A DNA stretch of 64,000 nucleotides, from positions 124,001 to 188,000 of the forward strand of contig CDROCS010001843.1 in NCBI GenBank assembly GCA_977020255.1. Reading direction: 5' to 3'. The notes under the pieces were generated by a model, which saw only the letters and a program-made list of their open reading frames with translations, made no database searches and was not told the origin of the DNA. Positions 8,056 through 39,199 of this stretch are shown piece after piece (within the stretch, counting starts at the first letter, position 1; each line of letters starts with the position of its first letter). The translations under genes and the position numbers were made by a program. Source of the stretch: Obrimoposthia wandeli (taxonomy: Eukaryota).

Positions 8056-8270
8056 TGGTTAATATAACTAAAACATTGAATTTGATTGGACTACATCCAT
8101 ATTAAAAATCAAATTTGATTGGACTAAATCCATATTAAAAATCAAATTTGATTGGAAGAAATATATCATCCAATTATAATAGGTTTGCAAGATAATAACA
8201 AGACACGTGCAATAAAAAAGCAGGTTCAGACATATATAAAGAAGAATTTACAGAATACAATTTTAGTCTA
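8056..8270. promoter_or_regulatory. divergent promoter with tandem CCAAT boxes at 33-bp spacing and a TATA-like box
   Basis: AATTTGATTGGACTA(C/A)ATCCATATTAAAAATCA repeat gives three ATTGG boxes; CATATATAAAG at about 8230; lies between divergent ATGs at 8055 and 8271. Confidence 0.6.
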
Positions 8271-8772
8271 ATGAAAAACGTAGATATAAATTATAAAGGT
8301 AGAACAGTAGATGATGTTTCGTACTTAACATTCAATGAATGGAAGCCGAAACAATATGTGGAAAAGTTTGACAATTTCACAGTTGTTATTTTTTCCTACA
8401 GGTACCTTTTTTATTTTATTTTCATATTGAATTATATTAGGAAATTGTCGTGTTATGGGATGCAAAATACCAATGCTTGGGTTCAATTTACCATTTGGAA
8501 TTCGAATCACTGCAATACAATCAATCATGATTTCGGCTAATCTTGTGAAACAGATAAATATTTTTAAAACTGCAGAGAAAAAGAAAGAAGAATGCATGTT
8601 TGAACCAGAAATTTTCCCGGCTCTCAGTTATTTGAAGTTTAAACCGCTATGTGTAAATATATTTTCCAGTGGTAAAATTATGATATTGGGATTGAAAAAT
8701 TTTGATTATACAGACATTGTTGATTTGATTTTAGAAAATATATCTTATTACATCTTGTTATCTTTTCTATAA
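8271..8772 (+). CDS. TBP-like (TATA-binding protein fold) gene with a 39-nt intron (8402-8440); +1 frameshift before the intron in this copy
   Basis: Spliced and corrected product has FTVVIFPTGNCRVMGCK and MFEPEIFPALSYLKFKPLCVNIFSSGKIMILGLK, matching the TBP repeat motifs TALIFSSGKMVCTGAK and YEPELFPGLIYRM..IFVSGKVVLTGAK. Confidence 0.8.
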
Positions 8773-8791
8773 ACAAACCCGTTTAAACTTA

Positions 8792-9043
8792 TTGTTTCAA
8801 ATGAAAAATACTATAAATAGAGACAATGAAGTGGATCGTCTTTTCGACGAAATATTTTCTGGAAAAATTAGTGGTAAACAAATTGTATCAGGATTTAAAA
8901 ATAATGAGATAACAAGAGATAACATTGAATTTAGAAATCGTACACAAATAAATAAAATTATAGCCAAATATTCATTAATTAATTTTTGTATTTCATCTAC
9001 AGTAGCTCTAACATTGCACATTTCAATAAGGAAACTTCTATGA
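8792..9043 (+). CDS. small Polinton A protein with C-terminal hydrophobic segment
   Basis: ORF conserved in copy A2 (52935-53216); ends YSLINFCISSTVALTLHISIRKLL. Confidence 0.55.
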   Translation: MFQMKNTINRDNEVDRLFDEIFSGKISGKQIVSGFKNNEITRDNIEFRNRTQINKIIAKYSLINFCISSTVALTLHISIRKLL

Positions 9044-9080
9044 TAATATAAACAATATTAAAAATGAAAGAGTATATGCA

Positions 9081-9569
9081 ATGGAGCTAAATAATAATGC
9101 TGTATTTCAAATAGTTGGTCCCAGTGGAAGTGGAAAGACACATTTCGTATGTAAATTGTTGCAAAACGAATATCTTTTCAAATCTAGTTTCAAAAATATT
9201 TATTGGCATCGTGGTGGAGGAGGGGAAAGCAGATTAATCAAAACAGAAGTTTGCAAGTTGAAGGGAATACAATTTATTGAAGGATTTGATGCAAATTGGT
9301 GTGAAAGATTGAAAAAAGAAGATGTAATAATAATTGATGATTTGTATCAGGAAGCTAACAAGGAATCGGACTTTAATAATTTATTTACGAAGATTGCAAG
9401 ACATCGTGAAGTAACAGTTATATTTATCACTCAAAATCTTTTTCACCAAGGAAGTCACCATAGAACAAGAAACCTTAATGTACATTACTTATTTTTTATT
9501 TAAAAATCCTAGAGATCAAACAGTTGTAGATTTCGTGGCCAGACAGGCGTTTCCCAAAAATAAGAACTT
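9081..9569 (+). pseudogene. Polinton packaging ATPase (A32/FtsK-like), frameshifted and C-terminally deleted
   Basis: Walker A GPSGSGKT, Walker B IIIDD, IFITQNLF..RT..LN motif; breaks at the deletion junction near 9569. Confidence 0.9.
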
Positions 9570-10264
9570 GGATCTGATGTAAAAGCTCTTAAATTTGGTT
9601 TTGACAATGGACATGTAGTAGGTATGATATATTCTCATCTAAATCGTTTAAAAATGTTCCTGATAAAGTAACAAGAGTGTTTTTATTTGAAACGAAACCA
9701 AAGTATGTAGTGGAACTGAAAACGTTTTCAAAAGATTATAAATTAGATAGTGAAGTGAATTTCTGTAAATTAATACAGAAGGAATGTAGTGAATATTTTG
9801 ATAAATGTGTAACATTAAAAAATGGTAAAATAACGTTTACAGTAAAGAGCAATATAATACGAGTTTTATTTGATGATAAACTCGCTAAAAACCTTGGTTT
9901 AAACAGTAATACCTTTGAAACCCATACAATAAAAACCATAAAAGCTAAAAATAAGGCAAAACTTTTAAATGCTGTTAATCATTTATATATTTATACTAAT
10001 TTAATAGAACCAACGCTTGTAGGAGGACAGCGAGTTCCACTTTTGAGAACAATATGGATATCTAAAAATGAAACTAGAGATGGGGACGCTGTCGGTATGT
10101 GTATAGATCAACCAATGTATCTTCCAGTTTCTCTCTTTTCTATAAACAATATTGAAGTAAATATTAGAGATGATTCCGGACAACTAATAGATTTCACGTA
10201 CCTGGCCAAGTCAAGTTTAACAATACATTTAAGAAAACAAAATGGCGAATCCAGCAATAATTGA
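9570..10264 (+). pseudogene. Polinton minor capsid (penton-like, PX) protein, C-terminal part
   Basis: LYIYTNLIEPTLVGGQRVPLLRTI and YLPV...IEVNIRDDSGQLIDF motifs; N-terminus removed by deletion. Confidence 0.8.
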
Positions 10265-10616
10265 AGCTTATAGTCAAAGCCAACAAGGTGGAGAATTACC
10301 ATATTTTGTTGGTAAACAATATGGATCTGGCTGGCTTAGAACATTAGGTAGATTTGCCTTTCCTCTTTTAAAGAGACTCAGGCGATTTATATCAAAATTA
10401 GGAAAGGATTACCTTCATCTAAGTACAATAAACTAATACCAACTTTTAAGAAGCATGCGCTTGATGAACTTGATAATGTTTTACCTGAAGTTGCTAATTT
10501 GATTAGAAAACGTAAATCAAATAAAAGCCAAGGAGGTAGTGGATTTAAAAGTAAAGAGAAGCAAAAAATCAATATAAACAAACGTAAGAATGTTGAAGGA
10601 ACAATATTTGCAAAAT
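10242..10616 (+). pseudogene. conserved small basic Polinton structural protein (QxGG / QYGSG motifs), frameshifted
   Basis: SQQGGELPYFVGKQYGSGWLRTLGRFAFPLLK in the canonical position between the minor and major capsid genes. Confidence 0.65.
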
Positions 10617-11840
10617 GAGTTGCGCCAAAACTGAATTGTGTATTTTTGATAAACCGCTTCCACAAGTAGTTGTAGATAATGCTTCCTTTGAAGAAATATT
10701 TCTAGTTAACTCAGTTTCAGGAACCACTTTAACCAATTTAGAATTTAATATTAATGGTTCCAATAGCGAGTATTTAAATTTGAATGATACTTTGCTTTAT
10801 GTTCAAATAAAAGTATTAAATCGGGATGGTACTAATTTAGATGAAAATGCCGATGTAACACCTGTAAATTATCTCTTTAATTCTTTATTTAATGATGCCA
10901 TTGTTACTCTTAATAATGTCAAAATTGAAGGTGGAAATTCTTCCTATGCTCATAAAGCTTTGATTGAAAGTCTTTTGAATTATAGTACTGATACTCAAAA
11001 TACTAATTTGGCGACCATTGGTTATGATAAAACGGTTGCAACTCGCAAAGAATGGATTGCAGGTTCTAAAGCTTACGAAATGTGTGGGTCTTTGAGATTG
11101 AATTTCTTTGAACAACCGAAATATTTAATTCCCTGTGTTAATGTACATCTTCGTTTGAAATGTAATAAATGGAATTTTTCTTTGATAAGCACGGACGTTT
11201 TAAAACCTAGACTTGATATTTTGGATGCAAAATTGTATGTTCAAAGAGTTAAAACCGAGCAATCAGTTTTAATGGCACATAATATAGGAATGGAAAAAAA
11301 CAATGCTTGTTATCCTATTAGAGAAACTAAACTTATATCTTATTCTTTAGGTACGGGTACACAAGCTTTTAATAAGGATCAAATTTTTGGTGATGTAAGA
11401 TTACCGAAATTCATTTTAATTTCTTTTCAAAAAACTGCAAAGTTTCTAGGAAATTATACGACAGATGCAACTCATTTTGACAATCTTAATGTAGGTTCAG
11501 TGACACTTTCAAGAAATACTGATTATCGTGAAACATATAAAACAGATTTCGAAGGTAACGCTTATGCTTTGGCTTATACCCAATCTATTATTCGGAATTT
11601 GGGTCAACTAGATAAAAATATAAACAATGGTATTTCTTTCACTGAGTTTAAAAGTAGCTGCCTATTCTTCACATTCGTTTTGGCACCAGACTTTGATATA
11701 AACCAATGCCAACTAAGGATGGAAATTTACGACTAGAAATTAAGTTCAATGCAGCTTTAACACATCCTACTACGGTGTTTATTTACGGAGTATTTGATTC
11801 GGAAATACAAATCAATAAAAACAGAACTGTCATATTATAG
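10615..11840 (+). CDS. Polinton major capsid protein (double jelly-roll, PY), frameshift near 11715
   Basis: CAKTELCIF..P.Q..., LEFNINGSNSEYLNLNDTLLYVQIKV N-terminus; shifted C-terminus GNLRLEIKF..LTHPTTVFIYGVFDSEIQINKNRTVIL*. Confidence 0.88.
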
Positions 11841-11841
11841 A

Positions 11842-12230
11842 ATGGAGTAAGACATATTTTAAATTTATATTTATTAATTTTTATTTAGTTCAAAACAAGT
11901 AAAAGAATCAGCAGAGAAGGTCCTGGGTGATAAATTCAATGGAGTTTATCCTATAGATATGATTCCATTTTTTCAATCTGGAGGTTACATTATCAATACT
12001 CATACTTCGAATTTACCAGGAGAACATTGGATAGCTATTTATGTTAGAGAGTGGACAATACATGTATTTGATCCACTTGCAAGGTATTATTCACACAAAC
12101 TTGTTTCAACTATTCAAAAATGACGAAGAAGAGTATTTTACAACAAGATACAATATCAGGATCCTGCGACGAGAAACTGTGGACATTTATGTATTTTATG
12201 GTTATCGTTGCAAAACAATAAGTGTGTTAT
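11842..12230 (+). pseudogene. adenain-type cysteine protease with a 42-nt intron (11847-11888), stop and frameshift
   Basis: ATGGA|GTAAGA...TTTAG|TTCA gives MDSKQVKESAEKVLGDKFNGVYPID; GEHW, FDPL, and Q..NCGHLC in a shifted frame. Confidence 0.85.
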
Positions 12231-12471
12231 AAAAATAAAAATTTTAAATGTTTTATTTTGAATTATTATTTAAATCTCTAAAAATATAAGGGTAAAATAA
12301 TAAAAGACATAAGACAAATTTTTTTAATACATTTATTAATCACAACATCACAATGAGATATGTCAGCAAAGATAAGGTCCATCCTAAAAAATGTATTGAA
12401 ATAACAAATAAGTTAGAGTCTAGGTGCCATAGGGATCTAAAATTTTAAAAAACTAAACTAAAAAAATCAAA

Positions 12472-12672
12472 GTGGTTGGTGGTTGGTGGTTGGTGGTTGG
12501 TGGTTGGTGGTTGGTGGTTGGTGGTTGGTGGTTGGTGGTTGGTGGTTGGTGGTTGGTGGTTGGTGGTTGGTGGTTGGTGGTTGGTGGTTGGTGGTTGGTG
12601 GTTGGTGGTTGGTGGTTGGTGGTTGGTGGTTGGTGGTTGGTGGTTGGTGGTTGGTGGTTGGTGGTTGGTGGT
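12472..12672. repeat. (GGTTGGT)n heptamer tandem array
   Basis: About 28 near-perfect 7-bp units visible directly. Confidence 0.97.
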
Positions 12673-12742
12673 TGTTTGATGTTGTTGTTGGTTGTTGTTT
12701 TTGTTTGTTTGTTTGTTTTTTTGTATTTTTTAAGGGCCTTTT

Positions 12743-15590
12743 TTATTTTACGTAGGTCCAGGTCTCAATCTTCTCCAGCTCCTCGGCTGACAACTTATCC
12801 AGGATCCCAGTTGTATGACTCGAGAATTTAGCCCACGAGGCCGCTGTATGTTCGATGGTTTTCAGGGTTAGTCGGATCTTGATATCCTTGATATCCTTTG
12901 CTTTAAAACCAGCATTTGCAAAGATCCGGTTATTGATTTCAGGCCAGAAGCCGAGGGTCCCGATCCTTAGCGCGTAGAGTTGCACGAGTTTTTCTAGGTG
13001 GCGGGTCTTTAGCATTTCAACGAGCTCCGCGTATTTGGACATAGTTTCAGTGAGCCTCAGATCAAATGACATGTCAGAGTCAAACGGGATCTTGATCTCT
13101 ATCAGCATCACCTTATAGTCAGTCTCGATCGTTATGTCTGGTCATGGTCTGCAGCTGTTTCCGTTATCGTCTACACATAAGTGGGTCAGCTCTTGAGTTA
13201 CCTGTCCTGGATATTTTAGTTCCAAGACCCTTGCAGTTTCCCGGCAGATCATGTCGTGTCTTTGAATTCGTAGTTTTGCTATGAGCTTACAACCAACGAT
13301 TGCATGGCTCATCGACTCTCGCTCCTGGCATCCCTTCCTGCATGGGGCGATCATATCAGTCCTGGGGCCTCGTACCTTCATGCGCCCGCACCTTGCGCGG
13401 TGGATGAAGAACCACCCTCGGTACGTCAGACGGCCCTTCATGATGGCCTGGTTAATGTATGTGTCTGATGTGGCGTTCTTATATATTGGACTCGCTAGCT
13501 TGTCTTCGAGAACCTTGTGACTCTGGCTGAGTTGCACAATGTTATGCATCGCCTTACTTGTGGTCTTGTAGGTCTTGAACTGCATGAGAAAACTGCCTCC
13601 ATGGTCGCTGGTTATGAAAAGATTGAGTGCTTGGTCCTTCTCAATCAGTTCTAGTTTGATATTTAGCTCATTCTGGAATTTCTTGGCCGCGTGGAACAGC
13701 CGCGTCCAAAGTCCCGTATCTTTCATGTTAGTGGCTAGGGTCCCTTCATTAAACCCCTGAACTGCTTCGGAGAAGGTCATTGGCGGATTAGGAAACTTCA
13801 ATTGTTCGGTGAGCTCACGCCTGAATAGGTTCTTTAGGTCCCTGTCGCGTGCATTTGCCATCTTTATCGTCTGGATGATGGACTGGATGTTATATTCGTC
13901 CTCAATCCTTGTCAGCCCAAGACCTCCACGGTCCTTGTTCCCATAGATAACTCCGATAGGGCTGTTGGCTAAGTCTAATCCCGCGATTGGTTTTATGACT
14001 TTCCTTAGGAGTCCTTCGAAGCCCCTTTCGTCTGTTCGGTTGCAGGATAAGCGGGAGTGTACCAGGTTTCCCTGTCTGAATACAAATATCAGCTTTGAGT
14101 GAATGAAGGTATTGTATGCGTCAGTCTTTTGATACGGTCTTAGTTCGCTTTTTGCCACTGCCGTGGTCAGTCGAAGCACTTCAGCCAACAGCTCCTCGCA
14201 ATGTTGCTTGGCGTTTGCAGTCCTGTCGCTGCCAAGGTATCGATATGGCGTGTCCGCAGTTACCTCTGGTATTTTTCCCCCTCTCAACATGAGATTGTCA
14301 GCTAGTTTGTCTTTCCTGTAAGGTATTTGTAGGACACCACACTTGCTGGGCCGGAATGTCAGCTGTAGGGTACTCGCGGTCTTGTCAGCGGTATTGATCA
14401 GGGCCTGGAGTCCTTCTTTGGTGCTAGATATGAGTGCAAGGCCATCGGCGTATGCCAGGGTCCGGATTTCTTCACCTGTTTCAAATCTGTATCCTGAGCC
14501 ATGGCTTTGGTTTGTGGCCTCTATTACCGGATTGATGCTCATATTAAATAAGAGCATCGATAGTGGACACCCTTGTCGCACTCCTCGTTTCATTGGGATC
14601 CGGTTGATTTTTCTGTCACCGCAGACAATGTTGGTCATATTCTGCTTATATACATCTTCAAGCAGTCTGATAGCGGCTGGGGCCACGTTAATTTTTTCCA
14701 GCATTCCCCAAATGAAAGAGACTGGTACCGACCCAAAGGCATCGGCCAGATCTAGGAAGGCGATGTAGGCGCAGCCTTGGTCCCTCTTTCGCAATACTTC
14801 CGAGGTGATCAGGCTAATCACCGTGTTGTGCTCGAAGCACCCCTCGTAGGCACCAAGGGATTTTTGTCGTGGATCCAGTATTTTATTCTTCCAGGCCCAA
14901 TCACTCATCCGTCTTGTGATGATTGACGCAAATATCTTGTAAACGCATGACATGACTGCGATAGGTCGCCAAGCTGTGATGTCATCGTAGCGCTGTTTCC
15001 TAGGGATGAACTTGGTCTTGAAGGTTCGCCAAGAGTCGGGAGTCCGTTGTTCGTCAATGCATGCATTGTATAGGCTGGCCAGTTTGTTACCATTATCGAA
15101 GCTGTGTAACATGTCCTTATATGTTACTTGGTCCGGTCCTGGGGCACTACTAGGTGCTGCTCTCAGCGCTCGAGTCACCTCCTCTGGAGTGATGTGGCTG
15201 ATCTCGAAGGTCTCTGGTGTTTTTTGGAAAAGGTTATCGGGAACTGCATCCCAGTCAATTGGGGTTGGTTCAACGCTCTTGCTTGTGAAGAAACCCCGTA
15301 TATTGTCCTCGTTTGGGCATGCTGTTGTCTCGTCGATAGGGATCTCCGTGATTTGGTCAAATGCTGCTTTTTTTGAGAAGGCGTATAGCTTGTTAATTAC
15401 GATATTCTCCTTGTTCTTGCCGTGGTTCTTTGGCTTGAAACAAGGGGCTTGATCACAATCCAGTTTCCTCAGTAGGCAGGCTGTGGTCACAGCCTTTTCT
15501 ATTGCGTTCACGTCCTTTCTTTCCTGCCGGGGGTTATTGCTCAGCACAATGGCCAAGGGTTCAGATATATCACCTTTCAGATATAAAAAT
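12743..15590 (-). mobile_element. 5'-truncated RLE-type non-LTR retrotransposon (NeSL/R2 superfamily), RT plus zinc knuckle plus restriction-like endonuclease, inactivated
   Basis: RT motifs WRPIAVMS, AFLDLADAFGSV, GVRQGCPLSMLLFN, YADG; CRKGC..ESMSH..GC..RHD; in-frame TGA at 13142-13144 then PDITIE..MLIEIKIPFD..K.KY. Confidence 0.93.
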
Positions 15591-16826
15591 CCTTAGGCAT
15601 GCTATATAACGTATTGTCATCAGGATTCAGTGAACATAATGTCAGATGTTTGCTGTAAGAGAGCTCGGATCGGAACCCATGCAAACATCTATGACACCAC
15701 TTACACCTTATCCTAACCGGTAAGGCTCCATTATCTAAATTTAGAAGACGATCTAAATTGGGAATTGCAGCATAATGGAATTTTTTATTATGTTCGAGCA
15801 AAATTAAGTTGACCTGAGTCCCCTCATTTTTGCTCCTATAAATTACATCTACAAAAGGATTTTTAAAAGGGGTATATTTACTGACACGCTCTCTATGCTC
15901 AGTAATTACATCCCTTTTGAGGATGGCCAACACGCTATACAGAAAGCAAAGGCTATCACTGTTTTGTACGTTAACAATGGAACGTGAAAGTTGAAGAGAT
16001 CTAGGTGAAGGAATGTATGAACTCCCCGAAAGATATATCATGTCAGTGAACTTTGTTAGAACAAAGCTAACATCGTGAATTCTAACTAGAGTCCATCCAC
16101 TACTTAACTCGCTATAATTAGCAATTTTTTCATCCAGGTTTCTTCCAATTTTAGTTACAAAATTATCATAGAAAACAGTTGCTTTATGTGAAATTATCCA
16201 AGTTTTAGTTTCCTCATTGACATTTTTAAAATGCACTGTTGCGCAAAATTGAACCTTAGCCTGTCCTAATTTAGTCACTTCTGATTTTAAAAGATTTTCA
16301 ATATTTGAATCTACACCTACGTTTAATAAAATTTCATTTCCTAATGGCACCTTAACTATAACATATTTCTTATTTAGGTGATACTCTATAGTAGCACCGT
16401 TTTCTCTACGTTTTTTTGGGTGGGACCTTATTAAGAAATTGGTCTCGCCTCTTTCTTCCGTTTGTCGCTGACAAACCTCCCCCTAATTGAACGGGAAGAC
16501 AACTATTTATATTAGCAGTTGACACAAACGCAGCTGAGATTGAAGGTGCTGCTATTGGCGATGCTGTCGATGTTGAGGTAATCGCAGCTGGTGTAGACGA
16601 TGCTGCTGGAATAGATGCTGCCGCAGATGTAGAGGCTACATTTGAAGCTGACCTTGCCGATGAAGAAGCGGCTGTTGTAGAGGTTAGTGCTGCTGAAATA
16701 AATATAATAAAAAATAAATATATTTTTAAAAATTACCTCTAAGGCGTGCTAACATCGATGTAGGCACTCGAGATGGGGGAGGCATAGCTGTCCTATCGGA
16801 TGACGGCTGTATCATAGTACTTCCTG

Positions 16827-16868
<42 letters not shown>

Positions 16869-17492
16869 AAAAATAAAATATATAATTTAAAAATAATAAT
16901 AAAAAAATACCTAATGAAGGCAATCCAAGTTGAGCTGGAATGAAGTCCTCTTCATTGACGAAATCCATCCAGCTGTCGTCCGACATCTCGACGAAATCGG
17001 ATTCCTCGATGGTCTCCAACCATGAGTTATCGCTCCACTGCTCTATCTCGAAATCTGACTGGGATATGTCATTCATCCACTCATTGTTAGACATTTGAGT
17101 GGATGGGTCAGAATCAGGAGCCTGGAGACCAATCGCAGGACCGTAAAATGGTTGATCGACTGCAACTGGAATTAGAGGTGGAGCGGTCTGCGAATCGCGC
17201 ACCAATTGCACGATATCCCTCTTCTTGTTGTTGGCCGTGAAACACGATAGATGAGCTCGATGTTCACCGAAGAAGTCTCGAAACTCCTTCTCCTCCATTG
17301 TTCTGCAGAATGGGCAGACAAAGAAATGAAGCCCGCGAGACTTTGTCCGATAGTATGCAGACATTGTCTCCATGCAGGTCTCTCCTCCATGCGGAGCCGA
17401 AGCACCACAATATGCAGGGAATAGGTTACACATAATCTGAAATAATAAATATTAATAAGGAAATAATAAATATAGATTCTTACCATAGGCAT
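15577..17492 (-). pseudogene. protein-primed PolB N-terminal region with spliced N-terminal extension (introns 17483-17437, 16910-16824, 16736-16693; +1 frameshift near 16415)
   Basis: SGWTL, SGSSYIPSP, IVNVQNSDSLCFLYSVLA, HYAAIPNLDRLL, CHRCL.GF.SE..KH..C are typical of the Polinton pPolB N-terminus; all three introns join in phase; polymerase core absent. Confidence 0.8.
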
Positions 17493-18305
17493 TATTTCAA
17501 ATAGTCGGGGATTTAAATGAAGAAAGTGTTTGCTTATATACTAAAATTTATGCACACATGCTCTTTTCCTATTGGATTAAAAAAATTGAAAAGGATTGTT
17601 TATCTGTTAAATGGTCGAAAAAAATATTTTTTTATTCCTCCAGTCAAAAGAATTAATTGTAATTGAATGAAAATTATGAATTAGAAGAATTGTTTATCTA
17701 CATGTCAAGTAATAATAAGAAAGACTTAAACATTTTTATATGCGCAATGGTCACCATGATTACGATATGGACAGCAAATATTTCGTGGAATTTTTAATAG
17801 ATGATCACGTGAAATATTTAAAGTATTCAACCTCAATTTGGGAAAATATTTTTTTAAAGTCATATACTTATTGCCATCCATTTCATCTAAAACATAAAAA
17901 ATTCTATTTTCTATATCAAAATTAAATTTGATTGTATCGAAAATACATGTTTCACAAAAAGCCTTATGTCCTTCTTTCCATTTTAATAAATGAATATAAT
18001 TAGTTAGATATAAATTAGTAATTTTTTTCTTATAATCTTAACTTTTAAACGGGATATATATTTGAAATATGAAATACAATGGATGAAAAACATCGCATAC
18101 ATCCATAATACATAACTCTTTTATAATATAATCACCATTTTTGTTAATGAAAGCCTCAAAATCTATGATATATTCCTGCATAATTATCTAAATTTGCAGC
18201 AAATCCCGTTGTTTATAACGAAGTACTTTCATGTTAAGATTGGTATATTTTGTCAATTCTCATATGTAATCAATAATCAATAAAGACAAAATAATAATCA
18301 AAATT

Positions 18306-18626
18306 TTATTTTTTTGTAGAAGGACCCTCTTCCGGTTTAATCTGGAGGATTCTCTTTCTTGCTGCTCGCCGAACATCCTCCATCTCTTCTCTTCTTTTTT
18401 CATCCACCTTCCTTTTTTCCAATTCGATCTTATTATTCCACTCCACGATTCGACGGCGTTCTGCTAGCCTCCTATCCTGCATCTCCACCCGATGATTCCA
18501 CTCTCTCGCGACAGCAGTATACAAATTTTGATTGAGGACCCTCTTTCTTAAGTCCCCTTTCTTCTCATTTATTCTGATGTTTGCTTCAATCTTCGTCACC
18601 AGACTCTTCATTTTAATGAATTCCAT
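18306..18626 (-). CDS. small charged protein of Polinton B (weak SERTA-like motif)
   Basis: Intact 106-aa ORF with DLRKRVLNQNL followed by a coiled-coil-like K/R/E tail. Confidence 0.55.
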   Translation of the reverse strand: MEFIKMKSLVTKIEANIRINEKKGDLRKRVLNQNLYTAVAREWNHRVEMQDRRLAERRRIVEWNNKIELEKRKVDEKRREEMEDVRRAARKRILQIKPEEGPSTKK

Positions 18627-18823
18627 TTTTTTAATTATGAAGAGGTTAATAAATTTGAACCTATATATATAAATTTGAGATATTTTTTAATCCAATTAAA
18701 TGATATATTTATCAAATGAGAGTTTAAGAAATCTATAACTTATCATTGCAAATAAATTTAAAGATAGTATTTCTAAATTTAAAATTTAAAAAAAAAAAAA
18801 TATTAAGAAGAAAACATATGAAA

Positions 18824-20583
18824 TTAATTTTTATAAATTATATTTTTAATCATATTTACGAAGTCATCATTGGGATCATCCGGATCGAAATCCCTCCGAA
18901 TAAGTATAATTGGAGAAAGCGGTACTGGTTCCTTCTTCTTTGGCCGACCTGGTTTCTTTTTCGGCTTCACCGGTTGCTTTGTAGAAATTGTCCTTCCCTC
19001 GGGTTTTGGCAATAGTTGCCGCAACATTTTGGGAGGAGGTGCAGCCGATGTTGATGGTCCCGACATATAAGTTATCTTCCTCTTCCGCGGAGCTTTCTTC
19101 TGTTTCTCCTCTTTCTCACACTGAAGCTGGCGTGAGACGGCATCCTGTTGCCCTCGCGAATCTGGAAGCATTGCCGGTGAATCCAGTTCCGCCAGGAATT
19201 CGTCCAATCCAGCTTCATCCCAGGCCCTCTTCAAGTTATGGCTGGTTGTTGGATGAGGAGAAGCAGTCTCCTGCAGGCGTCGTTGACTTGAGGGCGGACT
19301 TATCTCGATCGGTGAGACTGGGATCCTCTCATATAGGATTGGACCGTCGTCCACTGGAGATGGGAGAATCTCCTGCCGTCCAATCACCGCCTCAGAATAA
19401 TGGCCAATTGAGGTTTTACATTTTCTCGAGCGCCTCGTCTTCTTCACCTCTGCCCTCTTCGTCCGTTTCCGCGAGAAAGGAGTAATTTCTCCCCAAGTTT
19501 CCTCAAATATCTGGACGGGTTCCTACAAAATATTAATAAAATTTAAACATATAAATAATTTACCTCAATGATGGGCAGGTTAGCCTGTTTCACCAACTTG
19601 GCCTTCTTCCGAGTGAGGGTTTTGACCCGATGGCGTTGCGGTTTCTTAACTGCCGCTTGCTTCCTATCCACCGGTTGAATAGGCGTCGCCTCTTCGTGGA
19701 TGTTCTCCATCTATGTGAATTATTAAATTTAATATCTAAATAAATTACCTTAAAATTATCTGGAGACGCTAGGTATCGGAGCTGACTCCTTGGCAGCTCC
19801 TGGCTGCATTGACTCGCCAAGTACTGCGGTTCAATCAGCCTCTCCGTCATGGTCACTGACGGTGCCAAATCCAGTTGAAGTTTCGGAAAATGAAATTAAA
19901 AAACATTTAAAATAAATGATGTCTAACTTCATTCGTCGCTTTTATTCTCCTAACAGGAGATTTCGGCCTTTTGAATGGTTCAGGCATTGTATTATCTGCT
20001 TTCGGAGTAGCAGAGGGAGTGAGACCATCCCAATCGTCGGTGAACAGGTGCCACTCGTCCTCGTCCAATTCTGCTACCATCGATTCGTTGGCTCCAGGGG
20101 CTCCGATACTTGGCTGTATCCATTCGTCGATGAATGGAGTCAAGTCCTCCTCCCCATCCGAAGGTACATCATCGGTGACAGCTCCTCGCCTGAGTCTGGT
20201 GCAAGGACTTTCTCCGGTTGAGACAGCGGGATCAATTTCCAGGGGCATTTGATTGCCTCCTCAAAATTGTCGAAGAGATTGGATCTCCCTGCTGCTACTG
20301 CTGAAGTTGCCGGACGATTGGGTTTTGTGTTTTGTCTGGGAGTACAGTCTTCCCAATTCTCTATCGAATCCTGACTAGTCAGATCGATATATTGGGATCT
20401 CTATACCCCACCTCTCACGTCCATTGGTTCTTATCTTGGAGTTGAGCTGGCCAATGAGGCTTCTTCTTGTAACAGGTTCGCTCTTGCCGCCGAAGGGGCG
20501 GGTGGTGTATGTTAGGGTCTTGGGTATGACACGGGTCGTTTACATTTGTAGTTGTGAGAGGTAAAGTGATACTGTAGCGCATG
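18824..20583 (-). pseudogene. multi-exon disordered protein of Polinton B with AT-hook-like motif; 5' part degraded
   Basis: Phase-0 introns 19563-19523, 19748-19711 and 19927-19890 (last has mutated acceptor) link the GC-rich ORFs; KKKPGRPKKK motif; acidic Trp-containing patches. Confidence 0.62.
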
Positions 20584-21429
20584 TTTTTGTAGTTATTTTC
20601 GCGAGAATGGAGCCCGCCCTTAAGTACAAGTGAGTTAATATCTTGTAATATTCGATCATTTTTAACATTTGTATTTTAGTAGTTATTAGTTGAACTTGAA
20701 GTATTCTTTTTTTTTTAAATAAATTATTTATATTTTAAAAATATCAAATAGTACTTGTTAATATGAATTGCTTTGCATTTGAAACTATTTTCGTCATTGT
20801 TTTAATACATTAATTGTAAACAATAAAAAAAACGCGCAATTTTAAAATTTTAATGTAATAAATTTGTTATTTTTTCTAAAGTTACAGTTAGATTATAGAA
20901 TAATGCTATTAGGCTGACGGACATACATCAATGGATTCGATGAATAACTTGTGATAAGATGAATATTTATCAAATTATTAATTATTTTATAATTAACATT
21001 ATGTTTAAAATCAAATTTGTTTAATTAAATCAAAGAAATGATAAAAATTTAGCACAAATTTAAATTTAAAAAATATTTTTATTTTAGAAAATTACAAGTA
21101 CTTTTATTTTTTTACCAGAACCTATTAAAGTATGCATGACCTTAAGGGTGTCTTTGAACTCAATTTTCATAGGCAAATACAACCATGTAATAAAATTATC
21201 ATGTTTGTTCCAAATTTGACCCTTAACTTGTGAACGACCATAAAATTTTTACATGATTAAACTCGTATTATGTTGACGAATACAACCATGTACTTGAAAC
21301 TATGAAATTCTATTTTTTTAACCCTTCATCTATGGACAACCATACCTATATGGATGAATTCGTCTTCTAAAGATGATTCCAACCATGTCTTCAAACCTTG
21401 ATATTTTAAACTTGATTTTGTTTTTTAGC

Positions 21430-22220
21430 CCGACCCTTTGATTTATGGACGACCATACTTTAAGGCTGAATTCACCTTCGAAAGATGATTCCAACCATGT
21501 ACTAAAACCTTGATATTTAAAACTTGATTTTGTTTTTAGCCCGACCCTTTGATTTATGGACGTCCATGACCCTTTAGGTATGTTGGTCGACCATAGATGG
21601 TCATGACCATACCTTCAAACATTCAAGTCCAAACTGAGTCCGACCCTTTGATTTATGGACGACCACAACCCTTTAGGTATGTTGGTCGACCATAGATGGT
21701 CATGACCATACCTTCAAATCTTCAAGTCAAAACTGACCCCAACCCTTCGACCTATGGACGACCACAACCCTTTAGATGTGATGACCAACCATAGTTGACC
21801 TTAATTATACCTTCAAAGTTTCAAGTCAAAACTGACCTTGACCCTTTGACCTATGGACGACCACAACCCCTTGGGTATGTTGGCCGACCATAGTTGACCT
21901 TAATTATACCTTCAAACCTTCAAGTCAAAACTGAGCCCGACCCTTTCACCTATGGACGACCACAACCCCTTGGGTATGTTGGCCGATCATAGATGGTCAT
22001 GACCATACCTTCAAACCTTCAAGTCAAAACTGACCCCGACCCTTTGATTTATGGACGACCACAACCCCTTGGGTATGTTGGTCGACCATAGATGGTCATG
22101 ATCATACCTTCAAACCTTCAAGTCAAAACTGACCCCAACCCTTTGATTTATGGACGACCACAACTTCTTGGGTATGTTGGTCGACCATAGATGGTCACGA
22201 CCATACCTTCAAACCTTCAT
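21430..22220. repeat. subterminal tandem array, 99-bp unit (about 7 copies) preceded by related 111-bp units
   Basis: CCGACCCTTTGATTTATGGACGACC recurs at about 21430, 21541, 21640, 21739, 21838, 21937, 22036 and 22135. Confidence 0.92.
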
Positions 22221-22367
22221 AACCTTTCTGAGCCAGACCCTTATGGTGTGGCAAGACACCTCTATTGTGATGCAACATATACCCTTATTGTGTGACACCC
22301 TTTAACTTGGTGTGCGCACACAGGGGGGGACCCCCCCAGTGGTCTAGACTCCATCAAAGTACCTACT

Positions 22368-25414: not shown

Positions 25415-25416
<2 letters not shown>

Positions 25417-25495
<79 letters not shown>
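25417..25495. repeat. (AT)n microsatellite
   Basis: Visible directly. Confidence 0.97.
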
Positions 25496-25497
<2 letters not shown>

Positions 25498-27012: not shown

Positions 27013-27250
27013 TTAGCCTGTTTTATTAGACATGATACTGCGTCGCATCGACTGGTTCATTTTATTCTGCACAGTACTTTTCCGAAACCGCTCCGGCATC
27101 TTCGCCTGGTCCTTTTCCCAATTCCAGTCCACAGTGTCTTTACAAGGACGCTTTCGCACTATGCCCAGAATGAACTTACAGTTTTTGCAGATGTGCATCG
27201 CGTCTTTGCAACAGTTTCCCAATAGAGGACACACAGCACATGGAATCAAG
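27013..27250 (-). CDS. LITAF-domain C-half terminal exon (C1)
   Basis: Acceptor TTTTAG|C; LIPCAVCPLLGNCCKDAMHICKNCKFILG contains the second CxxC knuckle of the LITAF domain. Confidence 0.8.
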
Positions 27251-30200: not shown

Positions 30201-30859
30201 TACAGCTTTTAACACTTTTATTAACTTGAGAATCCATATAAAGTTTCTTTTTAAACAGAATTCCCAGATTGATGATAAAATCTTTTCCCTATACCTCATT
30301 GTTATCGATTTTAAAGAAACCTTTTTAACTACACTATAAATCTGAAAGTATTTTTGGATACAAAAACAATGAATTATGCCTTTCCTTCAATTAATTTTCA
30401 GCTTTTATCTTAGTCAAAATTTCAATTTTCCTCAAATTTCAACAAAACAATCAATCAGATATGAAAGAAAGAGTAAAAGTAGCTGTTTCAAAATAAGAAT
30501 TGCTGAAACTAAATGGTAAGCAAAGAATCGTAGGGGGCTGCTCAAAATCGCTGTTGATGAAATTCAAGTATCCTATGCGCTTAGTCTTTGAATTTAGTAG
30601 GCCAAAATAACCACCGTATCATCTACCACCTGTAAACTGCTCTTGTTCAGTTGAGAAGTGTATGTATGTCTAAGGACATGTATAGATTTTTGTGTAGTTT
30701 GAGTAGTACAGGAAGAGGTATGTGAGTGTAGACGGATATAGTTAAAGTAAATACTGTCGCTCCCGAAGAGCGCGATTTTTTGGTAGTTACATTCAACCAT
30801 GTCGGGTGCGAATTTTGGTAGCCTGGAGGGGTGCGTTATTTTAGCTTCGCCGAATAGGG

Positions 30860-30923
30860 GGCTTTAAGACAGGAGGGGTAGGGGAGGGGAATGAATGGAT
30901 TAGACCGGACATATCCACCTACT
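30860..30923 (-). mobile_element. isolated family A-like Polinton terminus
   Basis: GGATTAGACCGGACATATCCACCTACT is the reverse complement of the family A end; similarity fades after about 30-60 bp. Confidence 0.7.
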
Positions 30924-32495
30924 AACGCTGTATTTTCTTTCCAATATGTCTGTACGATAACCTTTGATCATGATAAACCAAAATTTCTCCCTCTTCGAAA
31001 TCCAATAATGCTTCACATTTACCTATCAAATTTTTTTATAATAAATCGTCGTCAATTTAACAAATAATTGTAACTCATTTTTACGGATTCGTTTATTTAC
31101 AAATTTTATTTGTGATACCGTAATGTATCTTCCTAAAATGTTTATTAAATTCTGAATAATAATAAGAATATATATATAAATAATAATCGTAACTCGAATA
31201 AACATACTAAACATCCAGATATTATTATTTTTAATTATATAGGATGTTTACACTTGCATGTGGTATTTACAATAAGACATCAAGTGAATATATTTAATTG
31301 GTTTTCACGGTACCTATACGGCATATTCTACCTATATACACCACTTCACTAAATTCAGTGTTTAAATTTAAATCCGTCCTTTAAGAACACTTTTTCTAAA
31401 ATTATTAAGAAATTATTTTGACTTGTTTAAAACACATTCATAAACATATTAATTTCCTCTAGATTTGTAATTTTTTTCAAAATCACAAACTAATGCAGCC
31501 TAAAAGTTTGCTATTTATGACAAAGCATTTTACGAAAAATGTAACTGTGTTATGAATGAAATTTTAATTAGATAAAGTGAAATTTTATTATTGAAATTTC
31601 CAAATTTTTTTTAATGTAATGTAAATTGAATCTAATTAATTGTATGGAATGATATCCAACAATAATTTGTAATTTATATGAAAACAAACTTTACGAACAA
31701 ATATAAAAACATAGACACAATTAAATTTCAAATTCACAAACATATGTTAATACAAATCGCAAAATAATATCAAGTTATAACTTCCGAAAATATATGGATC
31801 TATGGAATTGGAATACTAATTTATTATCTATATTAAATTATTATTTTATTATTTATTTTCACATTTCGATTTTGATAGATATTCAAATTCTATAACGATA
31901 AATTATTTTATTAGTTTATCATTTTATAAAGATGTGTGGGAATTAGGATTAACTGATTTAAGAAACAGGTCATTTTCTAATGAGCATTATAGAAAGATTT
32001 TCATCAAATTATAATTAAGACATAAAGTAAAAAGTAAAAGAAAATAATAAACTGAATGCAATAATATATTATGTTATCAGAGAATTTAGCCAAAAATAAC
32101 TAAGATAAATTCATAATTAGTATAAAGTAGCACAAATAAATATGATAACATAAATAAAACTTGGAGAAAAAAGTAAACTCAGTTAAAATCAGCAAAGTTT
32201 AAATAAAATGTCTAGTTTGAGCAGAATGGACTTTCATAGAAATTTTGTGAAAATTCTTCTTTGTCATTTCAAAATTGAAGTCTAATCAAATTATATTTTT
32301 GATTTATTGTTACTTTGTTTCGACCTTTTCTTTGAAGCTAGTTCAAACCATCTTGTAGTCAAATTCTTTGGAAGATCACACGAACAGAATAGCCAAAATA
32401 TGCACAAGCTAATTCTATGTTAAATTTTCTCCTAATTCCAAACCGGTTTGTTTACTTGATGCATGTAGTTCTTTGATTTCCGCTTCTTCACTTGA

Positions 32496-32877
32496 TTAAG
32501 AGTCGTCAGACACACTATCTCTTTTGAAAGACATTTTCGACCTTCTTCTTTCCTTGGCACTCTCACTGTGTAGCAGAATTGAGGCTTCTGGAGACTGTCG
32601 AAGATTGACTTCTGGACTTTCATTCGATTTCAGAGCCTTTACTTTCTCATTGTTTTCAGCTATGCTCCGTCGCATGGATGTGCGCATTTTGCTCCTTACG
32701 GAGCTTTTTTCAAAACGAGTCGGCAACTTTATCTGGTCTTGGTCCCAATTCCAATTGACAGAATTTCCACACGGTAGCTTCCTCACGATACCAAGAATAA
32801 ACTTGCATTTGGGGCAGATGTGCATCCGGTCTTTGAAGCAGGTGCTCAATAACGGAAACCAAGCACAGGGAACTAGG
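32496..32877 (-). CDS. LITAF-domain C-half terminal exon (C2)
   Basis: Acceptor TTTCAG|C; LVPCAWFPLLSTCFKDRMHICPKCKFILG. Confidence 0.8.
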
Positions 32878-34499
32878 CTGAAAAGGTTAAGATTGGTCTT
32901 TACTTTGCTGAATAGAACTCATAAAAATTGTAAAATTGATTCCCTTAAATATCTTTTATGTTTTGAAGCACTTAATCTGTCATAAAAAGTCATTGGAAAT
33001 AAAAGTTATCTGACAAAATAAATCATAGCCAAAATATACGTTTGAGATAAATATGTTAAAAAGGATTCTTTGACTTCTTATGTCACACAAATCTGAATGC
33101 ATAATTCAGGGATTGAATGGGCATGTTATACATCTATTGTGTTGAGCACAGGATATATGCGAGCAATAAGGCACATTGTCCAATTGTTAGATTAAGGGAA
33201 AAAATAAATTAAAATAAATAATGCATTATTTATAACAAATATTTTACCTCAAAATATTCAAAGATTAAATATGTTTTTTTTAAATAAATTAAGGCCTTAA
33301 AGGTCATACAAACGAATATAAGAGAATGAAAGTGTAGAAAAAAGGCTTAGGAAGATTGTGGAATTAGTTAGAGATTTAACAACTAGGGAAGTCAATAACT
33401 AGCGAAATAAAATGAGTCAGTCGACTTAATTCGTGAAATTTCACACCGTTCGCGAAATTCTCGATACATCAAGTAATATCCGGACAACAAAGCTCTGCGA
33501 CAGTATCTGACCGACCAACGATTCAGCGAGTCATCACCTCGAGTACACAGTAACTTTGAACACAATAGCAAACCATAAACAGAAAACAACAAGTATACCA
33601 CTAGTTTATCACTAAATGTAACATAAATTTCTACATCATCAACTGAATCTCGGTCCTATTAGCCAAATTCAAATTATGATTTATCAAAAGTTGACTTTTT
33701 TCACAGGTTTTCTGGCAAACAGAAAAAAGGGAAGCTTCAGTATATAGAAAATAATGATAAGAATTTAAAATGTCTTAGTGACTGTAAAATTTTTAATAAA
33801 ATGTTGTTTATTTGCAGTTTGAAGCAATTGTTTTTATTTATTTTTATTACTTATTTTATGTTATAGTATCATTTGTAAAAACAAACAAAAAAGTCAATTA
33901 AATAAAATCTTATTTCATAATTTTCTTCAAAAAATTTCCGAAAATAATGCATGAAAATTTAGAAATCATATTCAAGTTTTATTATTTAATTGTTCATATT
34001 TTTATAAATTTTTAAATTAATTATTAAAGGAATTTTTATAAACTTATACATCAATACTTGTATAAGACGAATAATAAAATTAAAATGATTTAATTTTTGT
34101 TATATTTAAATTTGCAAATAAATTTATTTTAGTTTTCAAATAATTACTATGTACATAATTATTGTTAGAAATCTTCACAAAAAAATAAATATTAAAAAAA
34201 AATAAGGGAGGGCTTTCAACTTGGACACTCAGAATAATATATATATAGATAATGGTAAAATATCAAAGCTTTTCCGTGCGAAGTTAAAATAAGTCTGTAT
34301 TGAGCCAAAAGAAAGTCTAAAAGATATTAAACGAATTAAATTTATTTGATCAAAAATACTACAAAATCTAGATTTTTTTCAGTAAAGTAATTCTTAAATA
34401 TAATGAGGATTATATATATATATATATATATATATATAACTAGTAATTTAAAGAAAATTACTTTTTTGAAAATGATATCAAATGTAAATTACAAATATA

Positions 34500-35000
34500 C
34501 AGTCCACCTCCGATAATCCGAACATGTAAAAACATAAATAGTTTCGGATAGCTATTTTTTTGGATTACGGGGTTTTTTCTGAAAATTAACATGCATAAAT
34601 GCACACATATTCATTCAATTCTTTTCCAGAAAATCATTCGATGTAGTTGGTCTCATGTGTTTTATACGTAATTCTTAGATATTTTCTTTCATTTCAGTCA
34701 AATGATTTTTTAGATTTGGATGAAATCTTACTGAAACTGTTTTTAAATTTAAATAATCGAAAATAACTTCAATTGCATTGTACACATCTTTGATACGAAC
34801 TCCAGCTTTAACAATATCGTCATCATCACAAGTTTATCTAGTTTTAACCGAAGAAATAAGTTGAATAATTTACTTGTCGGTTATGTTGTCACAAGTTTCT
34901 AGATCATTTATATATTTTATGGAATGGATACGAACCATTGAAAATCAAATCAATTTCTTCTTCGATAACGATTTCTTCTGATTCTATAATACCAGTTTTA
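34500..35000 (-). mobile_element. pogo/Tigger-like DNA transposon 3' remnant
   Basis: TA|CAGTCCACCTCCGATAATCCGAAC terminus; degenerate acidic transposase C-terminus on the minus strand; second TIR not found. Confidence 0.5.
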
Positions 35001-36024
35001 TTATTTTAATCGTTACTTAGAGCAACATTTATTATTTTTATGAAATTTTGATATCCTCTGTTCTTATCATATATGGAGAGCGACGGGTATGCTTGATAGA
35101 ATAAACCCGTTTCATCCATTTTAATATAGTGTCTGGATCAATGCCATTTAAGACGTCTAATATTTTCTTTCTTCCAGATTGAACATCTTCAATGGAAGTA
35201 GAATTTGCTTCACCATAAAGAATTCTTTTCAAGAGGTTATGACGACACTTAAAGCAACCACTTGAAAAGGCAACAAAAAATAAGCGCATAAATGAATTTC
35301 GTAATAATTTTAAATTTATTTTTATTTCTTTTTCTTTTTCATATGAATATTATTTAGGTTTCTAATTTTATAATGTAATAATCTTAAAATTAAAATAACA
35401 AAATTTTAATCTGGAAATATAATTTAAGTACCAAGTTATTAATTAAACACACAGATGGAAATAATTAATAGAAACGTTTAAAGAATAACATGGAAAACCA
35501 TCCATGTTATTTATTTTGATAACTTTAAATTCTGACATTTTTTAATTTTTATCCCCAGAGAAAATTTAGCACAAAGTATTCCATATATATTATGGGTTTT
35601 ATTAAAATTAATAATATAGAGATTATTTTATTGTTTCCACAAATGTCAGATTTTTATAACTCTCAAATTAAATTTTATATTATTATCTTTAACAAAATAA
35701 ATAGAACAAACATTTTTAACGCTTGTGTGTAAATACAGACTTATTTTGAGCTCTCACGGACAGCCCTTAGGGAGTTTAACTAAACCATTATCTATCCATA
35801 TAAAAATCATTCGATTATAAGCGGCCAAGTTCGAAACATCCTCTTGTAAGTATGGTTACAATGTAACTTACATAAATTTAATTGGGAATGTCACTACACC
35901 TAATAGCGAGATTACTGTCTCACAAATGTTACTGGAATTATATCTATAACAATTGAATTTATACATTAAGTTCATTTGCAAAGCTTTAATCTTCTTAACT
36001 TTGTTTATGTGGCTAATGATATTT

Positions 36025-39000
36025 AGTAGGAGTAAGTGAGGACTAGCGGCCACCCCTTGAAGTAGGTCAAATTTCTCCCGAGTAGTCATGTTGACATGGT
36101 TTTTTCAGGTCAAGGTCATTCTGTAGGTAAAATTTCTCCGGAGAAGGTCAACTTTCTCCCTTGTAAAAGGAAAATATTAGAAATTTATTAGAATGAATCT
36201 AATAATCAATAAATCGAGGTATATCTATCCATTTCTAACATGTCTATCGTTTCATGAATTTTCTTTCAAAAACCTTTATCCCTAACTTTCAGAGAAATCA
36301 CCAAATACCATAAATTCATATATTACCATACATATTGATTATTGAAAAACTGAAATTATCAATATTATTATCAACATCTAGTGGCTGATAGTAGGAATAA
36401 TGATTTTTCTAATATGTCATTGAGATTTAGAGTATAAAGTGGAGTAATGTAACTAATTATGGAGAAGACTTAGATGTTTTGAAAGTTAAATAGATTATTA
36501 TACAAGCCCACATACAATTCATTTAAACAGATCAATATAATCCAATCAATAAACCATTTGGGGCGGATAAGATATCCTAAATTTCCTTAGCATGTAATTA
36601 ATGTCTCTTCTAGAGCCAGCTAAATATCCTAACTTTCTCTCATATATTGATATACGTCTATTTATTATTCACTTTAGCACCAGTTTAGCCATTTTCCTAT
36701 AATTCGCAATAATTTCTAGCTCATCAATTTCAGAGACTCCTTATTTAGTAAACATTATATATATAGATTATCAAATAATGAAAGAATATTTAGATATAAC
36801 TGATACTTCAACGGTCTTAGATCAATTTCAGAGTTATACTATAAATCAATAATCAAGTATTTCAAAATTACCCTAACAGGTAGACTGCTAATACTCTAAC
36901 CAAAACATACTCTGATTATCTTTACCTAAATTACTGTGACTTAATAGTGGAAGTTGTTAGAGTGAGTTACAGCTACATTATTGATTCAAATCATGTATCC
37001 CATCTTTATGATAGAAATATTGATAAAGATAGACATTTAGGTAATATCATCTTAGAATATTACAAATCTCATATAACAAAATCACTAAATAACGCATAGA
37101 AGAGAAGAATAATATGGAGGTTAAGAAGAGGATAATTTCGTGGTAGTTGAGGGATTAAGTATAAGAAAATTAGCTAATCATCTATGCATAAACCTTAAAT
37201 ATCATACATTTCCTGAAATTATCCTCTAACCATTTAAATATCATAAATTTATATTCTAGAAGCATCTAGCTAATATCTCCTCTGGACCCACATTTTATCT
37301 TCTATGACATTTTCCCTTCTAAAATCCTTCTAAATTATTAATATCTATGCTTAAATTTGCTTCTAAAACCTCTAATTTCTCTTCTGAAACCACCACCTTG
37401 TTAAATCTTTGAAATATCATAAATTTCCAGAACAACTCGTAAAATATCACAAATTTCCTGACACCTCGTAAATTTCTTCTAAGATGGTTTTATGCTTATT
37501 CTTTTAGAATCATCTAAATATCATAAATGGCATGGACATCTAGTTAATTTGTCTTCCAAACCATCTAATATTACAAATCCCATATACATTACATTTATTC
37601 CTTCTCTATACATTTCCTTATTCTAAATCAGCTAATATGATAAACATCATACATACTTATTAATTTCCTCTAAAACTTTCGTAATAATCACTAATATTCC
37701 CTCTAAACCATCTTAATATCACTAAATAATCCATCTCAGGGAATTATCTTCTATAAACACCTTGTTAATTTCCCTCTCTGAACATAAATGAATATATATA
37801 TTTATAATATATATTTCTCTGTATATCTTTAAATTATATTATTTATATCAGTAATTTAAGTAACTAATAAAATGTATTGAATATTATAATTTAATAAATA
37901 TTTCCAATTATATTATAAGTAATTTAAGTAACTAATAAAAATATATAATTAATTTTAAAAATAATTGATTTTCTTTTAAATAATTAATTATGAAAATAAT
38001 CAAAAAATAAATTTGAAAATTCAATATGGCGATTAATTTTTAATAATAATGAATGGATTTCAGATTACAGGTAAGTTTTTATTAATTATCTTTTATTAAA
38101 TAATTTTTAGATGAAGATGATGAAGAAGATGAATATTATATGCTGGATTATGATGAAGACAAGATGAGGACGAGATATTATAATAAAGGTTTGCATTGAT
38201 GAGATAAAGATTAAATGCTAGATTATGATGAAGACAAGATGAATGATTGCGATGAATGATGACGGATTGCAATAATGAAGATAATGAGATGAAGGATGAG
38301 AGATTGTGATAATGGTGAGATGAGGATAAAGGATAGCGATAGTGAAGATAATATGCTTAATTATGATGAAAACATGATGAATGATTGTGATGAAGGATTA
38401 TATTGATGAGATGGTGAGATGAGGATGAGAGATTAGATGGCGGATTATGTTGAAGACAATATGAAGGATTACGATAAAGGATTGTATTGATGAGGTGGAG
38501 GATGAAGATTAGATGCTGAATTATTATGAATGACTGCGTGAAGGATGGCATTGATGAGATGAAGGTGATAATGAAGATGATGAAATGAAGGATGAGGAAT
38601 TGCGATAATGAAGATTAGATGCAGGATTATGATGAAGACAATAGGAAAGATTACGACAAAGGATTGTATGGATGAGATGAAGTATTATGATGAGGATAAG
38701 TTTCCTTTGGATAATATTATAAAACACTAACATTAAATTTTGATAAATATTTGTTACTTGTAAATAAAAGTAATACAAATATTTTAAAGTTTTAAGTTTT
38801 TTGAACTTTTTAAAAATTTAAACTAAAATAATTTTGAATTTTTTTTTTTGAAAATCCGCCAAAAATAATTTTAGGAAAATTTGAATTTGACGTGCAAAAA
38901 TATTGATGCGTTTAAACAAAAATGACCATGACTCGTTTAAACAAAAGAATGACCTTCAAATAATCTTTACCTGAAAATATCATGCCTACTCGGGAGAAAT

Positions 39001-39199
39001 TTGACCTATATAGCCTTCAAATGACCTTGACCTTGAAAAATTATGTCTACTCTGGAAAATTTTGACCCCTAACAGGTATACTCAGGAGAAATTTGACCTA
39101 CAAAATGACCTTGACCAGAAAAAACCATGTCAACATGTCTATTCGGGAGAAATTTGACCTACTTCAGGGGGCTGCCTCTAGTCCTCACTTACTACTACT
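36025..39199. mobile_element. non-autonomous Polinton-type element, family C (3175 bp)
   Basis: About 117-bp imperfect TIRs starting AGTAG(G/T)AGTAAGTGAGGACTAG; perfect 6-bp TSD ATATTT at 36019-36024 and 39200-39205. Confidence 0.85.
38049..38700 (+). pseudogene. degenerate Asp/Glu-rich repetitive gene inside element C with a 40-nt intron (38071-38110)
   Basis: ACAG|GTAAGT...TTTTTAG|ATGAAGATGATGAAG; repeated ATGCTGGATTATGATGAAGACAA units; many stop codons. Confidence 0.4.

Follow-up and report, generated by a model that had tools for sequence, protein, structure and literature searches.

The genes of Polinton/Maverick elements in a 64,000-nucleotide (nt) stretch of Obrimoposthia wandeli DNA (contig CDROCS010001843.1, positions 124,001 to 188,000; the window in what follows) are interrupted by very short AT-rich segments, which are very probably ordinary major-class (GT-AG) introns that the host spliceosome would remove and that form part of the elements' own gene structure. 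What would be new is the occurrence of such mini-introns in Polinton core genes, one of which seems to have been conserved through a lineage. The window, eukaryotic DNA rich in AT (31% GC), contains three families of Polinton-type termini, A, B and C, whose AGTAG-type ends differ between families. Family A codes for a TBP-like protein, an A32 ATPase, an rve integrase (Pfam) and an adenain-like protease; family B contributes the N-terminal part only of a protein-primed polymerase, a gene absent from the A copies and from C.

Splice signals, homology gaps and reading frames

A first-pass annotation of the window had listed ten AT-rich GT-AG introns in these elements. All ten segments are present with the lengths it gave (Table 1), and their A+T content is 84-97%. 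Nine of them start with GT and end with YAG; the tenth, 19927-19890, whose acceptor had been described as mutated, starts with GT and ends with CAT. We scanned the window blindly for the motif, with 30 + 30 block shuffles of the window as the null. Fifteen distinct donors were found (shuffle means 7.0 and 11.7, maxima 12 and 19), and nine when flanks of at least 28% GC were imposed (means 2.4 and 3.1, maxima 5 and 8). The motif alone is not decisive in DNA of this composition, and homology and frame tests were therefore used. When AT islands were searched blindly in the family B coding blocks, four of seven carried both splice signals at their edges, and at least four were reached in 43 of 20000 null sets. 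Removal of the segments restores colinearity with homologues in the TBP-like gene (two copies) and the protease gene, and an open frame at five family B junctions. The less well supported segments are 17483-17437, 19927-19890 and 38071-38110, the last of which has perfect splice signals in front of a decayed repeat frame and is a candidate by signals only.

Six homologues of the TBP-like protein of family A were found (46-52% identity, 119-190 residues, uninterrupted). The four closest full-length ones (P0001-P0004) all form a single alignment block with copy 2, containing a gap of 13 residues that corresponds to exactly 39 nt; the remaining two align less cleanly over exon 1. All six are continuous across the junction and are therefore intronless or transcript-derived. 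Between the two copies the intron differs at 5 of 39 nt, with both ends kept, versus 11 of 291 nt in the exon stretches compared. With the TBP-like read-through as query, PDB yielded spurious matches to designed repeats and nothing else.

The presence of a two-repeat TBP-like gene inside a Polinton (8271-8772 and 52501-52850, both on the plus strand) is an observation in its own right. Its product may help to recruit the host transcription machinery. A literature search for TBP in Polintons returned one review, which was unrelated; in the adintovirus paper TBP occurs once, in a figure legend of the section on non-animal datasets, and splicing has no passage (PMC8502044).

In family B, three of the listed introns lie in a second core gene, the protein-primed polymerase, since P0157 and P0158 both hold the Cys/His domain (17436-17218) and the 16392-15595 domain in a single polymerase. 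The introns between 16400 and 17490 are thus placed, by homology, in a gene that the first-pass annotation had not named. The best polymerase homologue, P0157 (41% identity), carries PF03175. The linkers of the homologues vary greatly in length, so that the junctions at 16736 and 16910 are not placed exactly by them, and a search of the ESM Atlas with polymerase exon 2 gave no usable match. Segment 17483-17437 is followed by an in-frame Met and is therefore not needed for coding. A further frame break, near 16410, remains in the gene. Upstream of the polymerase lies a broken open reading frame (ORF), 17726-18232 on the minus strand, without a Pfam match for the part tested and with a putatively DEDD-nuclease-like acidic motif.

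The other family B gene (18824-20260) had no Pfam match. Its sole open frames are connected by three phase-0 introns. Each of the six family B exons tested has exactly one stop-free frame out of three, and at all five junctions reached from an upstream coding exon the open frames are brought into register by the length of the intron. We estimate that such agreement would arise by chance with a frequency of about (1/3)^5.

Table 1. Elements, genes and predicted introns in the window
Feature	Position	Strand	Basis and remarks
Family A Polinton, copy 1	7047..12260	+	terminus, Pfam TBP and Pox_A32, copy comparison
TBP-like gene, two exons, copy 1	8271..8772	+	Pfam, homologues; frame break beside donor
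39-nt GT-AG intron, phase 1, first TBP repeat	8402..8440	+	signals, homology gap
Probable major capsid gene	10615..11840	+	identity from size and gene order; frame break near 11720
Adenain-like maturation protease	11842..12261	+	homologue profile, Peptidase_C5; in-frame stop 12121-12123
42-nt GT-AG intron, phase 2, codon 2 of protease	11847..11888	+	signals, start spacing
Non-LTR (long terminal repeat) retroelement	12472..15592	-	reverse transcriptase ORF, 29-copy 7-nt repeat tail; between families A and B
Protein-primed polymerase, 5' part	15580..17492	-	Cys/His domain, low-complexity linker, N-terminal domain; frame break near 16410, internal deletion, truncated
44-nt GT-AG intron, alternative acceptor 3 nt further	16693..16736	-	signals; retention closes frame
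87-nt GT-AG intron with AT microsatellite	16824..16910	-	signals; read-through in frame without stop
47-nt GT-AG intron, phase 0, near polymerase start	17437..17483	-	signals; coding support weak
Family B gene, low complexity, four predicted exons	18824..20260	-	frame analysis
41-nt GT-AG intron, phase 0	19523..19563	-	signals, frame
38-nt GT-AG intron, phase 0	19711..19748	-	signals, frame
38-nt intron-like segment, GT donor, non-canonical acceptor	19890..19927	-	frame only
Family B end	21322..22367	-	AGTAG-type terminus at 22367 abutting Gypsy-like pol fragment; then 99-nt tandem repeats
Family C non-autonomous element	36025..39199	.	130-nt inverted termini, perfect 6-bp target duplication
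40-nt GT-AG intron candidate before decayed acidic repeat frame	38071..38110	+	signals
Family A copy 2	51553..57819	+	90-94% identity to copy 1; copy comparison, Pfam, termini
Same 39-nt TBP-like intron, copy 2, in-frame stop	52631..52669	+	signals, homology gap

The probable protease intron and its likely counterparts in divergent relatives

The first-pass annotation had placed one intron in a core virion gene, and this assignment holds: the profile of the homologues of the protein matches adenain (1avp, E 5.7e-09), and Peptidase_C5 was detected on four of them. Exon 1 of the protease comprises only 5 coding nt, its ATG lying 1 nt past the stop codon of the upstream capsid candidate. Without splicing, the frame stops in codon 3 (three stops fall within the intron) and the first Met thereafter stands at residue 24 of exon 2, which would give a product lacking 25 N-terminal residues; a full-length protease therefore needs splicing. 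We searched cluster representatives for homologues and obtained 1565 relatives, the best 150 of which were taken; one row of 1415 residues was dropped, leaving an alignment of 149 rows. A Met stands four residues before a conserved Gln column in 86 of the 149 rows (another residue in 51, a gap in 12), and the spliced window protease has this same spacing, as expected if splicing restores the start. A homologue search with exon 2 aimed at longer sequences found nothing.

A scan of bacterial and archaeal genomes gave two loci (L001 and L002) from 12 pattern matches. L001 is a distant relative with an intronless protease and the same tight coupling between upstream stop and ATG, and the C-terminus of the capsid candidate resembles the ORF upstream of its protease. 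This locus (L001:1-806), with a capsid-like C-terminus and an intronless Polinton-type protease, sits on a 963-bp contig in a metagenome-assembled bacterial genome and is probably a mis-binned viral fragment.

The protease intron also appears, from their N-terminal residues, to be present in four relatives, which goes beyond the first-pass annotation. P0007, P0010, P0011 and P0019 (52, 45, 48 and 49% identity) are all within the 13 best protease matches and all lack a start Met; at the second-codon position each has Ser after Phe or Asn, as a YAG acceptor would allow, and their leaders consist for 73-92% of F/Y/L/I/N/K. Among the 145 remaining rows of the alignment, none has the YAG-compatible residue pair at the junction. 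In P0010 and P0011 the leaders are longer and hold motifs compatible with an ATG exon followed by a GT donor, and the introns so predicted would measure 37 and 47 nt; the background of this motif is 139 of 6469 windows, and no other row without Met has it. A quick tree search with 59 rows placed the window protein, the four signature rows and four of the six late-starting matches in one group of 12 rows, and the signature is found in none of the 47 rows outside it. The intron thus appears common to relatives of about 50% identity and so would be older than the copies in this genome; it looks inherited within a Polinton lineage and not a local accident.

Several points weigh against this interpretation and against that of the segments in general. 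The 12-row group, whose Shimodaira-Hasegawa-like approximate likelihood-ratio (SH-aLRT) value is only 88, also takes in three rows that lack the signature. A plain Met start is present in five of the 13 best matches, which are thus intronless or transcript-derived, and the contrast among these 13 was chosen after the data had been seen. The introns of the relatives are deduced by back-translation of proteins, and splicing in the window is deduced from sequence anatomy, homology gaps and frame logic. No branch-point consensus stands out: a TTAAT-like word occurs in six of nine introns, but is expected often in AT-rich DNA. Finally, all Polinton copies within the window are degraded, and the 15 donors of the blind scan fall within the range of the 100-nt shuffles (mean 11.7, maximum 19).

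The last two points, together with the AT-richness of the genome, the microsatellite in one segment and the missing AG in another, would agree with an origin of the segments as AT-rich insertions, or as products of slippage, in copies undergoing decay, their likeness to introns being fortuitous. Such an origin does not account for the exact homology gaps, the exact start spacing, the frame linkage at five junctions, the position of the splice signals at the edges of AT islands and the recurrence of the same signature in divergent relatives, and we give it next to no credence. The segments thus behave, as far as their sequence can tell, like the spliceosomal mini-introns that had been proposed.

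Probable origin and role of the introns

We then compared the introns with one another. No similarity beyond that of shuffles was seen for 35 of the 36 pairs; the remaining one, the neighbouring polymerase introns 16736-16693 and 16910-16824, was nominally alike over about 30 nt (score reached by 1 of 200 shuffles), which is not significant after 36 tests and is perhaps due to a local duplication. A family of mutually similar intron copies, the mark of introners (intron-generating transposons), was thus not found within the window. Insertion of real introns by introners after integration has a precedent in dinoflagellate Polinton-like elements (PMC12166617), and the one alike pair could be cited in its favour. 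We nevertheless consider it very improbable here, given the unlikeness of the other pairs, the TBP intron common to two copies and the recurrence of the protease position at 45-52% identity. The dinoflagellate introners share with our case the presence of spliceosomal introns within eupolintoviral proviruses, but they form repeat families, are mostly acquired post-integration and lie for about 25% in coding regions (PMC12166617), whereas the introns of the window are mutually unrelated and one position is common to divergent elements.

Spliceosomal introns inside Mavericks, inherited with the element, are also known from the cargo of nematode Mavericks (wasp proteases, krma kinases), where they occur in host-derived genes of a separate region (10.1101/2022.07.12.499685). 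By analogy, the introns could have come with captured host cargo genes, the shared protease position resulting from parallel gains beside the start codon. The TBP-like gene and the family B gene 18824-20260 could be cargo, and the modest tree support, with intronless rows inside the group, would allow parallel gains. Protease and polymerase, however, are core genes and not cargo; all six TBP-like homologues are unbroken at the junction, so that this family is not generally interrupted there; and the same codon and phase recur in five sequences that group together. We therefore regard a cargo origin as doubtful. In the integrase, ATPase and capsid ORFs of the window no intron-like segment was seen.

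In most respects these elements resemble known Polintons/Mavericks (eupolintoviruses, adintoviruses): they have inverted termini, a 6-bp duplication (family C), an rve integrase, an A32-type ATPase, an adenain-like protease and the N-terminus of a protein-primed polymerase. They differ by the interrupted protease and polymerase genes and, in family A, by the TBP-like gene, whereas intact vertebrate Mavericks are described as without introns (PMC8097293) and the core genes of the nematode Maverick as intronless, the introns being confined to its cargo genes (10.1101/2022.07.12.499685). Group I introns are reported in cryptophyte elements (PMC12220804). Word searches of PMC10748475, PMC11296320, 10.64898/2026.10.13.758929 and 10.64898/2026.07.28.741278 gave nothing on spliceosomal introns in core genes, and we found no literature report of such introns in Polinton protease or polymerase genes, Repbase, the original descriptions of 2006-2007 and supplements lying outside the scope of the search. 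Adomaviruses and adenoviruses are DNA viruses of the nucleus that likewise have an adenain protease and rely on the host spliceosome for their late genes, but for the marbled eel adomavirus the acceptors are described as lying ahead of start codons (10.1101/341131), whereas here codon 2 is split.

In length, the introns compare with the micro-introns common in flatworms (PMC6530080, PMC13594981), which belong to host and not viral genes: those of Opisthorchis peak at 37 bp and are 5'-biased and clustered (PMC6530080), and the short introns of Schmidtea mediterranea peak at 45-85 bp (PMC13594981), eight of the ten window segments being shorter than 45. The first-pass annotation had called the introns host-style; a comparable mini-intron of a host gene was not verified within the window, where the sole host gene recognised, LITAF-like, has long introns.

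Under the interpretation that we favour, that of ordinary introns belonging to the elements, the elements would be transcribed in the nucleus by host polymerase II, and the host spliceosome would take out the 38-47-nt introns by intron definition. As the element would be copied from DNA to DNA, an intron once gained would pass to all its descendants. The protease intron would have been gained once in an ancestor of the Polinton lineage and kept across about 50% protein divergence, probably by neutral persistence or through a general boost to expression and export and not as a switch.

The first-pass annotation had raised the idea that the introns gate expression by cell type. A regulated switch, in which splicing of the protease (and polymerase) messages limits particle maturation to certain cells or to late infection, would agree with the destruction of the protease frame on retention and with the conserved position; planarian Polintons are de-silenced in differentiation, though by chromatin and not by splicing (PMC8532177). 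The near-consensus splice sites suggest constitutive splicing, and such a switch seems to us improbable. Somewhat less so, though still unlikely, is the broader proposal of a Polinton lineage whose protease and polymerase were made dependent on host splicing by ancient mini-introns, with codon-2 splicing as a late-stage or cell-type switch, and which is under-counted by intron-free gene calling.

Whatever their role, the introns do break ORF-based annotation, as had been anticipated. Endogenous-virus surveys call genes on the assumption of no introns: this holds for protist surveys (PMC10120064), and introns were ignored in a 2026 pan-eukaryote survey in which flatworms are reported to have Polinton-type insertions (10.1101/2025.04.19.649669). 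Such gene calling would score an intact element of this lineage as broken, and mis-started proteases seem already to be present in public protein sets. A core-gene intron kept over about 50% divergence would mean long reliance on nuclear transcription and the host spliceosome. The protease intron would mark a clade of Polintons and exemplify the gain of an intron by a DNA virus, and junction reads would be a simple way to see if, and in which places, an animal expresses Polinton virion genes, which bears on the question whether animal Polintons make particles.

Elements and neighbouring features of the window

AGT-type ends, a mark of Polinton/Maverick terminal inverted repeats, are present in the window. 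Family A termini occur in both orientations (at 7047 and 46829, and reversed at 30923, 51552 and 57819), family C termini at both ends and the family B terminus at one end. The 6-bp target-site duplication is perfect in family C; family A has no matching pair and family B is single-ended. Intron-bearing genes had been attributed to three Polinton families, and three terminus types are indeed found, but the third, C, rests on termini and target duplication, its element containing no recognisable core gene. We also considered families A and B as a single element; this was rejected, as the two have different termini and are connected by no inverted match.

Copy 1 of family A runs from the left terminus through the TBP-like gene, a small ORF, the A32-type packaging ATPase (9030-9500, Pox_A32 E 9e-07, Pfam) and putative minor and major capsid genes to the protease; it lacks the integrase segment and the right terminus. 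Copy 2 stops inside the capsid gene at its right terminus and has an uninterrupted integrase ORF (54422-55516, Pfam rve E 8.5e-14), found in family A only. The candidate for the double jelly-roll major capsid protein, assigned by position and size, had no match in Pfam or PDB, and its single-sequence fold model was unusable (predicted local distance difference test, pLDDT, 28). The first family A ORF, on the minus strand, carries an unrelated internal segment in each copy (7788-7843 versus 51924-52093), both in frame.

In the stretch 46829-51552 a family A left terminus precedes 4.3 kb of AT-rich DNA of unrelated sequence, which contains repeats of 54-60 nt; an assembly gap of 578 nt and a right terminus resembling a hairpin also occur there. 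The stretch could represent a nested derivative or an artefact of scaffolding. The non-LTR retroelement, which truncates the polymerase gene of family B, joins it to the protease end of family A and is not part of the intron finding. Just inside the family B terminus (21322-22242) lie tandem repeats of 99 nt, about seven in number, and two repeats of 112 nt.

Polinton pieces appear to sit within long introns of the host LITAF-like gene (minus strand), which apparently consists of one first-half exon and three alternative second-half exons (61790-61390, 59680-59548, 42586, 32882, 27255). An isolated 3' fragment of an 18S rRNA gene, possibly flatworm-like, lies near 940-1190 on the plus strand (Rfam SSU eukarya).

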